A stretch of DNA of 64,000 bases from Opitutia bacterium (GTDB lineage: Bacteria > Verrucomicrobiota > Verrucomicrobiia > Opitutales > Opitutaceae). The first letter of the stretch is position 1. Each line of letters starts with the position of its first letter. The notes under the pieces are model-generated. The model was not told where the DNA came from. It made no database searches and was given only the letters and a program-made list of their open reading frames with translations. Shown here piece after piece: positions 29,663 to 36,387 of the stretch. The stretch is taken from NCBI GenBank assembly GCA_947478395.1, contig CANJVR010000001.1, positions 800,001 through 864,000 on the forward strand, given 5' to 3'. The position numbers and the translations under genes are program-made.

Positions 29663-29746
29663 TGGCGCCCGGCGCCTGCACGTGGGCCGCCCAAATTCTA
29701 ACGCCGGCCGGCCGCCCGGGGAAAATCCAGCGCCTTTAAGCCCCGC

Positions 29747-30622
29747 ATGATGAATTTATCGGACGCCCACAACCACCTCGCCTCCAGCCGACTCGCTCCG
29801 CACCTGCCGCAAATTTTTGCCGATCTTGCTGCCGCCGGCATCACGCACGCGGTTGTCAATGGCACCGACGAAACCGATTGGCTCGAGGTCGCGCGTCTCG
29901 CGGCCACGCGTTCGATGGTTATCCCGAGTTACGGTTTGCATCCTTGGGATGTAGGCAACCGTTCACCCGCGTGGTTCGATTCGCTGCGGCAACATCTCGT
30001 CGCGGACCCTCGCGCTGCGGTCGGTGAAATTGGGCTCGACCGGTGGATGCTCGATCGCGCGCGCAGCGACGACCCGCGCCTCGCGGGCCTCCGTCGCGCT
30101 CCGCTCGACGAACAGCTTTCCACCTTCACCACCCAACTCGCGCTGGCCACCGAACTACACCGGCCGGTTACCGTCCACTGCATCGATGCATTCGGTCTTC
30201 TGCTCGAAACCCTTCAAGCCGCCCAGCGCGAGCAACGCCTTCCCCCGCGGTTTCTGCTCCACGCCTACAGCGGCGCCGGTGAACTCGTGAAACCGTTTGC
30301 CGACCTCGGCGCTTATTTCTCCTTTAACGCGGCCTACCTCGCACCACGTCACGTCCGCCTGCGGGAAGTATTCCAGCTCGTGCCGCGCGATCGCCTCCTC
30401 GTCGAAACCGACGCACCCGCGATGCAGGCGCCGACGGCCTACGCACCCTTTTCACTGCCAGCCGGCCCTGACGGTCTCCGCCCCAATCATCCGGCCAACC
30501 TCGCCGCCGCCTATGCCGGACTCGCCGAGCTCAGACAGGAACCGCTCGAAATCCTTGCCTCCAACATCGCAGAAAATTTCCGGCGGTTGTTCGAAGCGAA
30601 ATCGACGGAGGCCAGCCCATAA
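29747..30622 (+). CDS. TatD-family hydrolase
   Basis: DAHNHL, GLHPW, VGEIGLD, VTVHC, LHAYSG, LVETDAP. Confidence 0.92.
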   Translation: MMNLSDAHNHLASSRLAPHLPQIFADLAAAGITHAVVNGTDETDWLEVARLAATRSMVIPSYGLHPWDVGNRSPAWFDSLRQHLVADPRAAVGEIGLDRWMLDRARSDDPRLAGLRRAPLDEQLSTFTTQLALATELHRPVTVHCIDAFGLLLETLQAAQREQRLPPRFLLHAYSGAGELVKPFADLGAYFSFNAAYLAPRHVRLREVFQLVPRDRLLVETDAPAMQAPTAYAPFSLPAGPDGLRPNHPANLAAAYAGLAELRQEPLEILASNIAENFRRLFEAKSTEASP

Positions 30623-30682
30623 AGACCGACCAGGAAAACGGTTAAATTTACCGAAAACGACAGCAGCAAGCGCATCCCGGCA

Positions 30683-30823
30683 CCGCTCGTGTTTACGCGG
30701 CGAAAAAGCGGCGGAAGCGGACGGAATGATTCCCACCTTCACTGATTCAGAAAAACAAAACCCGAGGAGTATAATCCTCAAGTTACGGCACGCGGCTCAC
30801 GACTCGGAAAGAGCCGCCAGCGA
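30683..30823 (-). repeat. Structured repeat copy 1 (degenerate; lacks the first hairpin)
   Basis: Shares CCGAGGA..TCCTC and GACTCGGAAAGAGCCGC with copies 2/3, and the left flank CCGCTCGT..GCGGCGGAAGC with copy 2. Confidence 0.75.
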
Positions 30824-30870
30824 GCTCCAACTTGATCTAGTGTGGCCGTAGCTACGGTACAACCACCGTT

Positions 30871-31045
30871 CCGCTCGTTTTTGCCCCGGTGAAACGGCGG
30901 CGGCGGAAGCAGAACTAGCGCCGCCTCCCCTGACTCAGGAAAACGAAAAAACCGAGGACGTTGAATCCTCGGTTTTCGAAACGTCGCCCACAGCTCGAAA
31001 ACGAGCCGCGGGCGACGGTGGGCAGTTAAAAGTTAACTGTTACAG
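30871..31045 (-). repeat. Structured repeat copy 2 (three hairpins ending in an intrinsic terminator), directly after the small ORF stop
   Basis: Core 30938-31045 aligns to 31454-31560 with about 10 substitutions and 1 gap (manual count). Confidence 0.9.
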
Positions 31046-31050
31046 AACAA

Positions 31051-31230
31051 TCAGCGGCTATCGCCATCGTGATCCACATCGCCCGCTGGGACGGCTGGAG
31101 CCGCGGCAGGGGCGGCGGAAGCAGCTTTCGCGGCTTGTTTAGCGGCGATTTGCGCGGCTAGTCTTTCTTGGTAAATAGAGGCGGCATCGCTGCCAGAAGA
31201 AGAACCGTAGCTGCTGATGGAGGAGGACAT
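31051..31230 (-). CDS. Small protein, 59 aa, not in the ORF track: MSSSISSYGSSSGSDAASIYQERLAAQIAAKQAAKAASAAPAAAPAVPAGDVDHDGDSR
   Basis: Manual translation from ATG 31230 to TGA 31051; A-rich translation-initiation region; promoter-like motif upstream and terminator element downstream. Confidence 0.75.
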   Translation of the reverse strand: MSSSISSYGSSSGSDAASIYQERLAAQIAAKQAAKAASAAPAAAPAVPAGDVDHDGDSR

Positions 31231-31302
31231 TTTATTTTGTCTTTAAGGAACTGCTGGGAGCTATTGGCGGTTAACACCGGCATGAAAGCTCCTGTTACCT
31301 AC

Positions 31303-31329
31303 CTAACGGTTAATTATGAATTTACTTAA
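31303..31329 (-). promoter_or_regulatory. Candidate sigma28 (FliA)-type promoter
   Basis: TTAAGTAA-N11-ACCGTTAG versus consensus TAAAGTTT-N11-GCCGATAA. Confidence 0.45.
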
Positions 31330-31424
31330 GGCATAGCTCTTGGCTGAGGCATAATAGTTTGCGAGGTGCCACCCTAGGAACGCGGGGCATGCACCCTGCC
31401 GCAGATAAATGCCGATGGAGAAAC

Positions 31425-31560
31425 CGGAGCTAGCGTCGCCTGCGCTCTCATTCGGAAAACGAAAAAACCGAGGACGTTAAATCCTCGGTTTTCGGAACGC
31501 CGCTCATGACTCGGAAAGAGCCGCGAGCGACGGTGGGCAGTTAAAAGTTAACTGTTATAG
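31425..31560 (-). repeat. Structured repeat copy 3 = glnII 3' UTR/terminator
   Basis: Begins 5 nt after the glnII stop: CAGTTAA-ctt-TTAACTG hairpin, a long second hairpin, then AAAACCGAGGA-loop-TCCTCGGTTTTTT with U-tract. Confidence 0.9.
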
Positions 31561-31565
31561 GAATC

Positions 31566-32603
31566 TTACTTCGTCGGGACGGACTGGATCGTTTTTACGA
31601 TGCGACCGGCCACGAGGTACGGATCGGCCGCGGAGTTCGGACGACGGTCCTCGAGGTAGCCCTTATAGCCGGCGTTGACGAAGCTGTGCGGCATACGGAC
31701 CGACGCGCCGCGGTCGGCGAGACCGTAGCTGAACTTGTCGATCGACTGGGTCTCGTGAAGGCCAGTGAGGCGGAGGTGATTCTCCGGGCCGTAAACGGCG
31801 ATGTGCTCGTCGCGGTATTTGTTGAAGGCTGCCATGAGTTTCTCGAAGTAGGCCTTGCCGCCTTTTTCGCGCAGGAACTTCGTCGAGAAGTTCGCATGCA
31901 TACCGGAGCCGTTCCAGTCGAGCGGCTGGTTGAACGGTGCGAGGATGGGCTTACAGCGCCATTCGATATCGATGCAATAGGCCTCGGCCAGACGAGCGAG
32001 AATGTAACGGGCGACCCACATTTGGTCGGCGGCGTTCTTGGAGCCTTTGCCGAAGATCTGGAATTCCCACTGGCCCTTGGCGACCTCGGCATTGATGCCC
32101 TCGAGGTTGATGCCGGCATCGAGACAGATATCGATGTGCTTCTCGACAATCTCACGAGCAACCGCGCCGACATTCTTGTAGCCAACGCCGGTGTAGTAAG
32201 GACCTTGGGGCGCCGGGAAACCGCCGCCCACTGGGAACCCGAGCGGAACGCCGTCCTGGTAAAAGAAATATTCCTGCTCGAAGCCAAACCACGTATCAGG
32301 ATCATCCGGGATCGTGGCGCGGGAGTTTGACACGTGCGGGGTTTTCCCGTCCGGCATCATGACCTCGCACATCACCAGCACGCCATTCTTGCGCGTGCTG
32401 TCAGGATATACCGCCACCGGCCTCAACACGCAGTCGGAGCTTCTGCCCTCGGCCTGCTGCGTCGAGCTGCCATCGAAGCCCCAGTTGGGGAGCTCTTCGA
32501 GCTTTGGAAGGCTCTTAAACTCTTTGATCTGGGTCTTGCTGCGGAGACTGGCCAACGGCTTGTAGCCATCCAGCCAGATGTATTCTAATTTATATTTAGC
32601 CAT
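31566..32603 (-). CDS. glnII: Glutamine synthetase type II
   Basis: 345 aa; EYIWLDG, WGFDGSST, GFEQEY, NAEVAKGQWEFQ, DWNGSGMHANFST, RLTGLHET, EDRRP. Confidence 0.95.
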   Translation of the reverse strand: MAKYKLEYIWLDGYKPLASLRSKTQIKEFKSLPKLEELPNWGFDGSSTQQAEGRSSDCVLRPVAVYPDSTRKNGVLVMCEVMMPDGKTPHVSNSRATIPDDPDTWFGFEQEYFFYQDGVPLGFPVGGGFPAPQGPYYTGVGYKNVGAVAREIVEKHIDICLDAGINLEGINAEVAKGQWEFQIFGKGSKNAADQMWVARYILARLAEAYCIDIEWRCKPILAPFNQPLDWNGSGMHANFSTKFLREKGGKAYFEKLMAAFNKYRDEHIAVYGPENHLRLTGLHETQSIDKFSYGLADRGASVRMPHSFVNAGYKGYLEDRRPNSAADPYLVAGRIVKTIQSVPTK

Positions 32604-32692
32604 AGGAGTGCGGGTTTTGGAGGAGTCTCACATGAACCCGCCAACCACGATAGTTGGATGACGGAGCCCACGGGAAAACCCAGAACGTATTC

Positions 32693-32708: not shown

Positions 32709-32829
32709 GCGGCAACTAGAAATTCGGCCTATGCGACAGGTTTTTTTCAAAAAAACCACCCAAGCCATCGTCACCCCTTGCTCCAGGACCCCAACCCCCC
32801 ACAGTAGGGGTCTCCGACGTCGCCGCGCC

Positions 32830-33249
32830 ATGCATGAAGTCAAAGACACCCAGCGCGCCGTCGTTCGCATCGGCTACGATGGCCGGGTGCACAAGACCTT
32901 CCGCGGACCCAAGGCCCAGGAACGCTTCGACAACGAGGTTCGCGTGCTTCGCCACTTGGAGCAACGGGCCTGCGACTTTGTGCCCCGGCTGATCGAAGTC
33001 GATCCGGCGGCACTGAAGATCATCACCACAAACTGCGGCTCCATCGTCCAGCAGCTCGATCCGCAAAGGATGCAGGAACTGTTTGCCGAACTCGCCCAGT
33101 ACGGCGTCCGCCACGACGACGCGTTCCTCCGCAACGTGACCTATCGCGCAACCGACGGTCGGTTTTGTCTCATCGATTTCGAGTTCGCCACCCTCCTTGA
33201 CGAAACCAAAATCGCCGACGCGAAGGCCAAGCCTCTTCCGAAAAATTGA
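32830..33249 (+). CDS. Minimal protein-kinase-like protein (139 aa)
   Basis: VHK (beta3 Lys), FDNE (helix C Glu), HDDAFLRN (HxDxxxxN), LIDFE (DFG-like). Confidence 0.75.
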   Translation: MHEVKDTQRAVVRIGYDGRVHKTFRGPKAQERFDNEVRVLRHLEQRACDFVPRLIEVDPAALKIITTNCGSIVQQLDPQRMQELFAELAQYGVRHDDAFLRNVTYRATDGRFCLIDFEFATLLDETKIADAKAKPLPKN

Positions 33250-34112
33250 TGCCCCCACCTCGTCGCCTCCCTTCGACCGACCATCCCCACCCCGATCTTC
33301 GCTGGTCCGGCCTCACGCATCGCGGTCACGTCCGGACCAACAACGAGGACAACTTTCTCGCGCTCGCGTTCGACAGCCGCGAAATCCGCTACCTCGGCAA
33401 AACCGGCGAGGCTTCGTCAGCGGAAAACGATTTCGTCTTTGCGGTCAGCGATGGCATGGGCGGCGCGAAATCGGGCGAGTTTGCCAGCCGCATCACTCTG
33501 GACCGCATCACCCGGTTGCTGCCGAAAAGCTTTCACCTCGGCGCGCAAGGCCTCGCCAGCGGGTTCGCCGATATCCTTCAAGAATTGTTCAGCGAAATTC
33601 ATGACGATCTCATGCACCTCGGCCGCAGCTACGAGGAATGCTCCGGCATGGGCACGACTCTAAGTCTCGCCTGGATCACCCCGGGATCGGTTTATTTTGG
33701 CCACATCGGCGACAGCCGGATCTATTTTCTGCCCCGACTCGGCGGTCTTATTCAACTGACGCATGATCATTCGCACGTCGGCTGGCTCCACCGTCAGGGT
33801 CAAATCAACGAGCGGGAGGCCCGCTCCCACCCTATGCGAAACGCGCTCCATCAGGCACTCGGCTCCGGCCACCAGCTGATCGATCCGCAGTTTGGCACCA
33901 TGGCGTGCTCCCCGGGCGATCGCTTTCTAATTTGCTCGGACGGCCTCGTGGACGGCCTCTGGGACCGGCAACTGGAGGAAATTATCCGCGAGCCGGGCGC
34001 CGGGCCGATCGCCCAGCGCCTCGTGCATGCGTCGCTAGAAAATTCGGGTAAAGACAACACCACCGCCGTCGTCGTCGAGATCCTCGGCGGAGCGGAGGCG
34101 AGCCCAGGTTAG
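33249..34112 (+). CDS. PP2C/PPM-family Ser/Thr phosphatase
   Basis: GHVRTNNED, VSDGMGG, GMGTT, HIGDSR, CSDGL, GKDNTT; TGATG overlap with the kinase stop. Confidence 0.93.
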   Translation: MPPPRRLPSTDHPHPDLRWSGLTHRGHVRTNNEDNFLALAFDSREIRYLGKTGEASSAENDFVFAVSDGMGGAKSGEFASRITLDRITRLLPKSFHLGAQGLASGFADILQELFSEIHDDLMHLGRSYEECSGMGTTLSLAWITPGSVYFGHIGDSRIYFLPRLGGLIQLTHDHSHVGWLHRQGQINEREARSHPMRNALHQALGSGHQLIDPQFGTMACSPGDRFLICSDGLVDGLWDRQLEEIIREPGAGPIAQRLVHASLENSGKDNTTAVVVEILGGAEASPG

Positions 34113-36180: not shown

Positions 36181-36291
36181 CTCAGGATGGAGGGGCCGCC
36201 GGCCGGCTACGGGGAGAGCAACGGAACCATGGCATCGCTGGCAAGCAAGCTCCTACCGCCGCTCAGATCCGATTCGCTCGGCAAAAAAAGT

Positions 36292-36387
36292 GGCCAGGCA
36301 CTCCACGGCACTGGGAGGACGTCGTTACCGTTGCTGCCTTCCGGCCCTGGCGGGGTTCACGCGCCTGCCCATGCATGGCACCTGGCC
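36292..36387 (-). ncRNA. ffs: Signal recognition particle RNA (small 4.5S type)
   Basis: GAACCCCGCCAGGGCCGGAAGGCAGCAACGG domain IV; terminal stem GGCCAGG/CCTGGCC; T7 tail; usual position upstream of dnaX. Confidence 0.93.

Follow-up and report, generated by a model that had tools for sequence, protein, structure and literature searches.

The three related repeats behind glnII in the window (the whole 64,000-nucleotide stretch of DNA analysed here) are very probably the recombinase-side end of a small integrative element, namely a P′ arm followed by three hairpins, and are probably what remains after a large serine recombinase (LSR) had inserted such elements one after another into the last codons of glnII, at a CC dinucleotide. 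Repeated integration, which would explain the triplication, was absent from the readings offered in an earlier note on this DNA. The repeats are minus-strand copies in a micro-island between glnII and a convergent tatD-like gene, and its parts are as follows, in the direction in which glnII is read:

31566..32603, minus strand: glnII-type glutamine synthetase, 345 aa, the putative integration target (NCBIfam NF041605 GlnII, E 2e-111, with a score of 372, under the cut-off of 500)
31553..31577, minus strand: putative attL junction, made up of the crossover CC (31577-31576), an inner arm and an outer motif
31575-31563, minus strand: attL inner arm, 13 bp, carrying the last glnII codons and the stop
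31562-31553, minus strand: attL outer motif, 10 bp, a putative site for the zinc-ribbon domain
31447..31554, minus strand: copy 3 hairpin unit, with hairpin 1 (31554-31538), hairpin 2 (31532-31498) and terminator (31493-31463) plus U-tract
31417..31433, plus strand: tip of an LSR gene, a few last codons and a TAG stop (copy 3 aligns with the intact LSR gene of contig L045 at 83%, through the stop codon of that gene)
31051..31230, minus strand: 59-aa alanine-rich ORF, putative cargo, with homologs in genomes G003 and G013 and a unit after each
30936..31047, minus strand: copy 2, a headless unit that starts with the outer motif (31047-31038), followed by hairpin 1, hairpin 2 and terminator (30977-30947)
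30859..30918, plus strand: LSR C-terminal remnant, 19 codons and a stop (18/19 aa identical to the C-terminus of P0005)
30742..30823, minus strand: copy 1, a decayed hairpin 2 and terminator (30784-30759), without hairpin 1 or att arm
30629..30706, plus strand: older, decayed LSR C-terminal remnant of 26 codons that adjoins the tatD stop (C-terminus of P0006)
29747..30622, plus strand: TatD-family hydrolase (TIGR00010, E 1e-38, below the cut-off), a convergent chromosomal gene that marks the limit of the micro-island

That the minus strand carries three related copies, as the earlier note had claimed, is borne out: copy 3 matches copy 2 at 85% over 137 nt and copy 1 at 80% over 84 nt. In the whole 3.31-Mb genome, BLAST at word size 7 gave no fourth copy. 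The triplication is no assembly artefact, as overlapping contigs from an independent lake metagenome of another study (DNA run X3) cover 29700-31041 and 31013-31556 with 0 differences. The proposed boundaries had to be moved. Copy 3 was said to begin 5 nt after the glnII stop but actually starts inside the gene, at 31577, with the putative att site within the final glnII codons, and what had been taken for the 3′ tails of copies 1 and 2 are really remnants of recombinase genes on the plus strand. Copy 2 has lost both the crossover dinucleotide and the inner arm. In a local search the remnant at 30859..30918 matches the 551-aa LSR P0005 with E 8e-10, while the older one is 50% identical to the P0006 C-terminus (E 2e-5) and, as DNA, 76% identical over 68 nt to the LSR gene of locus L046.

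The fold proposed for the copies, consisting of hairpin 1, hairpin 2 and a terminator, is upheld for copies 3 and 2 (z = -6.4 and -7.3, with 0/200 shuffles as good) but not for copy 1, which lacks hairpin 1 and whose fold is not significant (z = -1.2, 24/200 shuffles as good). All three copies have the GC-rich stem and U-tract of intrinsic terminators and are predicted to act as such. The compensatory change described for hairpin 2 (CUC/GAG against CCC/GGG) is there as a single pair, T-A in copy 3 and C-G in copy 2. The further statement that most other stem differences are G-U pairs on the minus strand holds as a bias, but hairpin 2 of copy 3 has one minus-strand C-A mismatch. Among 19 related copies, hairpin 2 has 59 minus-strand G-U cells against 7 A-C cells, which reduce to 11 against 4 when distinct column types are counted. 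The bias favours a single-stranded structure that would form on the glnII-sense strand.

To look beyond the window we aligned 24 of the 28 units collected (alignment A3), leaving out four divergent copies from G277 and G173 in which hairpin 2 could not be aligned; these four keep the three-hairpin layout with a different sequence, and their hairpin 2 has no consistent strand preference. Over the 24 units, pairing is kept in 88% of the cells of hairpin 2 and 97% of those of the terminator, compared with only 38-48% for slid structures. Cells changed on both sides number 21, and 0/500 shuffles reach the covariation score. Hairpin 1 does not fold, or stays above -1.5 kcal/mol, in 6 of the 18 copies that have the 5′ part. 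What stands of the claim that the structure is selected as minus-strand RNA is that pairing in hairpin 2 and the terminator survives sequence changes and that the wobble bias is present; the covariation figures themselves overstate selection because the copies are kin. The stability role that the earlier note also raised may apply at the 3′ end. At the gathering threshold, the only Rfam match in the window is the bacterial small SRP RNA (36289-36387, minus strand), an ordinary gene upstream of a dnaX-like gene, and none falls on the unit. Assembled RNA contigs (run X17) cover glnII only (31552-32616) and none of the copies; a DNA run also breaks at 31552, and such contigs are unable to show RNA ends and are evidence neither for nor against transcription of the copies. 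A sigma-70-like promoter within copy 1 (30746-30775) was set aside as chance, with 1 found and 0.7 expected.

Complete units share one order: a CC in Val-Pro codons near the end of glnII, 13 bp that carry the last codons and the stop, and the 10-bp motif TC[CG]TATAACA, for an arm of 23 bp after the CC. The CC core was found in 27/27 glnII ends read, and the full geometry in 10 of them, where the motif scores 9-10 of 10; the other 17 score 1-5. In G003 (locus L031) and G277 (L058) an inverted arm, in place of glnII, stands before a unit, giving a symmetric site of 48 bp (motif-13-CC-13-motif), of which the window retains one arm. For the A118 family of integrases, the sections of PMC3783163 used here place the zinc-domain motif at half-site positions 16-24 in attP and 5 bp further in for attB, some of the attB cases being weak. 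With the crossover base counted as 1, the motif of the unit spans positions 15-24, and a search for an attB motif shifted 5 bp inward gave scores of 1-6 of 10 across the 27 glnII ends. Judged by this comparison, the first 23 bp of the unit has the geometry of an LSR att arm of the attP kind. The arm motif is also the only strongly conserved unpaired stretch of the unit.

The full-length relatives of the remnants are LSRs; they measure 530-552 aa and combine Resolvase, Recombinase and zinc-ribbon domains. One named relative of the recombinase, P0054, points to an Opitutaceae-like host. In the metagenome contig L045 an intact operon, encoding a 199-aa tyrosine recombinase and a 529-aa LSR, converges on glnII, and exactly one unit lies between the glnII and LSR stop codons. 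The tyrosine recombinase consists of the catalytic domain only and is encoded upstream of the LSR in 7/10 loci; a REP_ORF2-G2P protein is found in G050 and L046, and in the island of G277 a 72-aa stretch at the far end also matches. For 9 of the 28 units an LSR tip within 300 nt is clear and for 2 it is weak or wrongly oriented. The remaining 17 have none, including copy 3, where the tip at 31417..31433 is too short for tblastn; for some of the 17 an LSR remnant lies further away, beyond cargo (G013, G003). In G003, G013, G014 and G016 there are further downstream copies with varying cargo and fragments of one ORF, the LSR. In G016 (L002, from about 2075 onward) the LSR stop region behind the unit is immediately followed by the start of a transposase-like ORF, and the LSR remnant continues on another contig. 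Taken over intact and remnant elements, the unit is seen in these alignments to have the glnII stop on one side and the stop of the converging LSR gene on the other. No LSR relatives were found in viral contigs.

The window genome itself has no intact LSR gene, no close tyrosine recombinase and no left-arm junction, and because both the intact LSR gene and the left-arm junction are missing the island is, to judge by its sequence, now a relic. Its 59-aa ORF has no family match, and the Atlas holds hypothetical clusters only, at 0.89-0.90. Compared with the homologs in G003 and G013, its codon changes are 10 synonymous to 3 non-synonymous and 9 to 6, and it likely uses copy 2 as its terminator. 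Other cargo recurs, such as ~80-aa repressor-like ORFs (weak CopG, E 0.15) with a divergent small ORF (L031 6836-7081 and 9049-9294; L032 6479-6715). Pfam gave nothing significant for the LSR remnants, the 59-aa ORF, the small repressor-like ORFs or a 192-aa ORF. On the other side of glnII, a short kinase-like ORF and a PP2C phosphatase gene (window 32731-34112, plus strand) are divergent from it, an arrangement kept in nearly all loci fetched.

Both ends of an element at glnII can be followed in G277, a genome found via its recombinase. Its 5.6-kb island begins with glnII, to which a unit and a fragment of the LSR gene are attached, continues through the internal symmetric junction, and also holds a headless unit behind a cargo gene. 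At the far end, a left arm and CC lead into the native P-T-A-stop and then a plain terminator. Next comes the gene that stands behind glnII in genomes without the unit; 7/17 unit-free loci give a tblastx match to it. Displaced host sequence is in this way found at the far end, and the two ends share only the core dinucleotide. The native glnII terminator kept there is a plain hairpin, unlike the unit.

The unit is not confined to glnII. In G128 and G284 it is joined at the CC to non-glnII DNA and followed by LSR remnants of 97-99% identity. The G128 junction is the end of another gene with similar last few codons, and is likely a secondary att site; by eye, the gene entered (L095 364-600) is glycoside-hydrolase-like, with an end ..VIQFVPTK that resembles that of glnII. 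Complete related elements of the same LSR family (LSR identity 43-46%), each with a tyrosine recombinase and a REP_ORF2-G2P protein, were found in the last codons of glmS in two genomes:

L056 5040-16030: the G050 element, 11 kb
L057 8550-15970: the G156 element, 7.4 kb

Both have the same motif at either end, 13 nt from a shared dinucleotide, and the hairpin unit is absent at their LSR end. The G050 element also has a 400-aa ORF, cytosine methyltransferase-like by eye, and a 1049-aa ORF without a Pfam match.

Across the family, the unit matched 24/401 genomes, ten matches of 19-37 nt, one of them at a glnII end itself, being set aside as uninformative. Matches of at least 120 nt outside the genus of the window occur in four genomes (G128, G173, G284, G300) of four different genera. 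At the 27 glnII ends the unit is directly behind the gene in 10, all of the window's genus, and absent in 17, of which 5 belong to the same genus and which mostly have a plain terminator instead. Such a patchy spread fits a mobile element.

The same locus varies within lake populations, where strains differ in the cargo between 30859 and 31417. In run X9 position 30859 is joined to 31417 through 434 other bases, and the sequence of run X15 parts from the reference at 30859, with 11 bases inserted at 31416. Position 30859 is a breakpoint in both runs and also the edge of an LSR remnant. The glnII 3′ end is a variable micro-island in these populations.

These observations can be put together in a simple scheme. 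The LSR would recombine the attP of a circular element with the end of glnII (attB) at the CC. The incoming arm would restore the last glnII codons and the stop, and the native terminator would be pushed away. Because integration would displace that terminator, the P′ arm would carry its own, which would end glnII transcription and shield the LSR gene that is met head-on. A later element entering the existing left junction would shift the older P′ unit downstream, and deletions would later strip the recombinase genes while sparing terminators still used by cargo such as the 59-aa ORF. Hairpin 2 is predicted in the glnII-sense RNA as part of the replacement 3′ end, where it may serve protection or stronger termination. 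The location of the unit, at a point where host transcription meets the LSR gene head-on and from which the native terminator has been moved away, suits a substitute 3′ end brought in by the element, as we infer it to be. It is rather unlikely, in our estimate, that this structured 3′UTR of a mobile element has been domesticated in a clade of at least 10 species, outliving its recombinase, with hairpin 2 setting glnII mRNA decay or yielding an Hfq-independent small RNA.

The wobble bias on which the RNA reading draws is also compatible with G-T pairs in DNA, so hairpin 2 might act in single-stranded DNA, either as a rolling-circle origin or as an attC-like site for the capture of cargo by the 199-aa tyrosine recombinase. 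The REP_ORF2-G2P protein and the position of the tyrosine recombinase gene upstream of the LSR speak for such a role, and two headless copies (window copy 2 and one from G277) open with the motif, placed right on a cargo stop codon or immediately behind it. However, the glmS-type elements and L046 have both Rep and the tyrosine recombinase and no hairpin unit at the LSR end, and six other headless copies begin later, at hairpin 2, with 5′ ends that vary as with deletions. For an integron attC array a fixed recombination point is missing, since the headless 5′ ends vary, and no IntI-type integrase was found. In rolling-circle replicons the displaced strand is usually the rep coding strand, whereas the strand favoured by the wobble is antisense to both rep and the LSR gene. 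We regard a function in single-stranded DNA as very unlikely.

Highly improbable, too, is an origin of the repeats by local duplication of the native terminator region or as a REP/MITE-type repeat. The case for duplication comes from G300, where a second copy includes ~70 nt of glnII upstream of the CC and resembles a homologous duplication, and from the similar terminator stems behind tRNA-Glu in G003, G006 and G013. Yet the native glnII terminator, as preserved in G277, is a plain hairpin of another kind, and duplication alone leaves the CC junctions and LSR tips unexplained. As the origin of the unit, local duplication is contradicted; it could account for one window copy. The REP/MITE variant, for which the earlier note expected many copies genome-wide, is excluded by the copy number, with just 3 in the genome and all at one locus.

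At L094 5706-5933 (G300) and L097 4258-4631 (G173) the copies extend 70-260 nt into glnII on the upstream side of the crossover, suggesting duplication or an imprecise excision that took part of the target along. The tRNA-Glu(TTC) genes with the similar stem are on the far side of the island (L032 7339-7413 in G013, L031 6128-6202 in G003, L035 4090-4164 in G006), and may be cargo because their sequence differs from that of the tRNA-Glu(TTC) of the window genome. A derivation of the unit from tRNA-Glu was rejected: there is a 14-nt likeness besides the stems, the two are not colinear, and the window's two tRNA-Glu genes are elsewhere with other terminators.

The most improbable reading is that of a glnII 3′UTR-derived regulatory sRNA like GlnZ, cleaved free and pairing with other mRNAs under nitrogen limitation. 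In 10 genomes of the genus the unit does come immediately after glnII, its hairpin 2 covaries with a wobble bias on the sense strand, and it matches no Rfam family. In enterobacteria, GlnZ comes from the glnA 3′UTR and needs Hfq and RNase E as well as a conserved seed (PMC9731577, in the part cited here), and like GlnZ the unit lies between a glutamine synthetase stop and an intrinsic terminator. In contrast to GlnZ, it has no conserved seed, as the linker sequences vary among units, its spread is patchy and recombinase-linked, and the gene is of the GSII rather than the GSI type. No Hfq was found with PF17209 in the 98.8% complete genome, a search that was positive in 5/14 controls (PF01423 matched archaeal controls only). 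The one unpaired stretch that is strongly conserved is the motif of the att arm, and this motif also borders the hairpin-less glmS elements. With the unit lacking at 17/27 glnII ends and present with LSR remnants at non-glnII DNA (G128, G284), neither a glnII-specific sRNA, which the earlier note had raised as a possibility, nor general conservation of the hairpins downstream of glnII orthologs is supported.

Reading the repeats as the recombinase-side ends of successive elements removes a tempting but false sRNA candidate and carries a more general warning, that in covariation screens an att arm with its terminator looks like a conserved RNA motif. An LSR family is defined at the same time, including the crossover, the motif of the arm and two target genes (glnII and glmS), and we did not find this family in print: the titles and abstracts searched, subscription papers aside, name no LSR that targets glnII, nor do eight supplements of the large LSR survey PMC10083194, the part of that source covered here. 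All 27 glnII ends read have the CC core, and the gene would be restored upon integration; this makes the LSR, together with its site, a candidate tool for inserting DNA into Opitutaceae-like bacteria.

Among known systems, the large serine integrases (A118/LI, Bxb1, phiC31), as the same sections of PMC3783163 describe them, share the ~530-aa LSR with catalytic, recombinase and zinc-ribbon domains and a symmetric site of 48 bp in which outer motifs at positions 15-24 flank a central dinucleotide. The glnII element differs in that the 5-bp-shifted motif was not found in the chromosomal glnII site, a 199-aa tyrosine recombinase gene precedes the LSR, no directionality factor was identified and the element is, as far as seen, not a phage. 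Both recombinase types in one element are also known from the VEIME marine phage satellites (PMC9618062, in part); virion packaging belongs to the VEIMEs, whereas the glnII element is known from sequence and the likeness is one of description. SCC and SCCmec, in the portion of PMC12648241 drawn on here, offer Ccr recombinases that act at the 3′ end of rlmH/orfX, with composite and recombinase-less forms. In both, a recombinase drives insertion at the 3′ end of a conserved protein-coding gene, and composite and recombinase-less forms exist, but the glnII elements use one LSR and a tyrosine recombinase rather than CcrAB/C, target glnII and, in relatives, glmS, measure 1-11 kb including the glmS elements, and bring an arm with a three-hairpin 3′ end.

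Tandem accretion at an att site is already a known kind of event. It has been described, together with integrase fragments, for the ssrA islands of Dehalococcoides (DsiB, PMC3146451, in part), and likewise for the tycheposons of Prochlorococcus (bioRxiv 10.1101/2020.12.28.424599, in part). There, too, the integrase gene lies by the left junction, new elements displace old ones, and att repeats and integrase fragments are left as relics. The targets in those sources are tmRNA and tRNA genes and the repeats are short direct ones, whereas the repeat at glnII would be the element's own arm and terminator, placed behind a protein gene.
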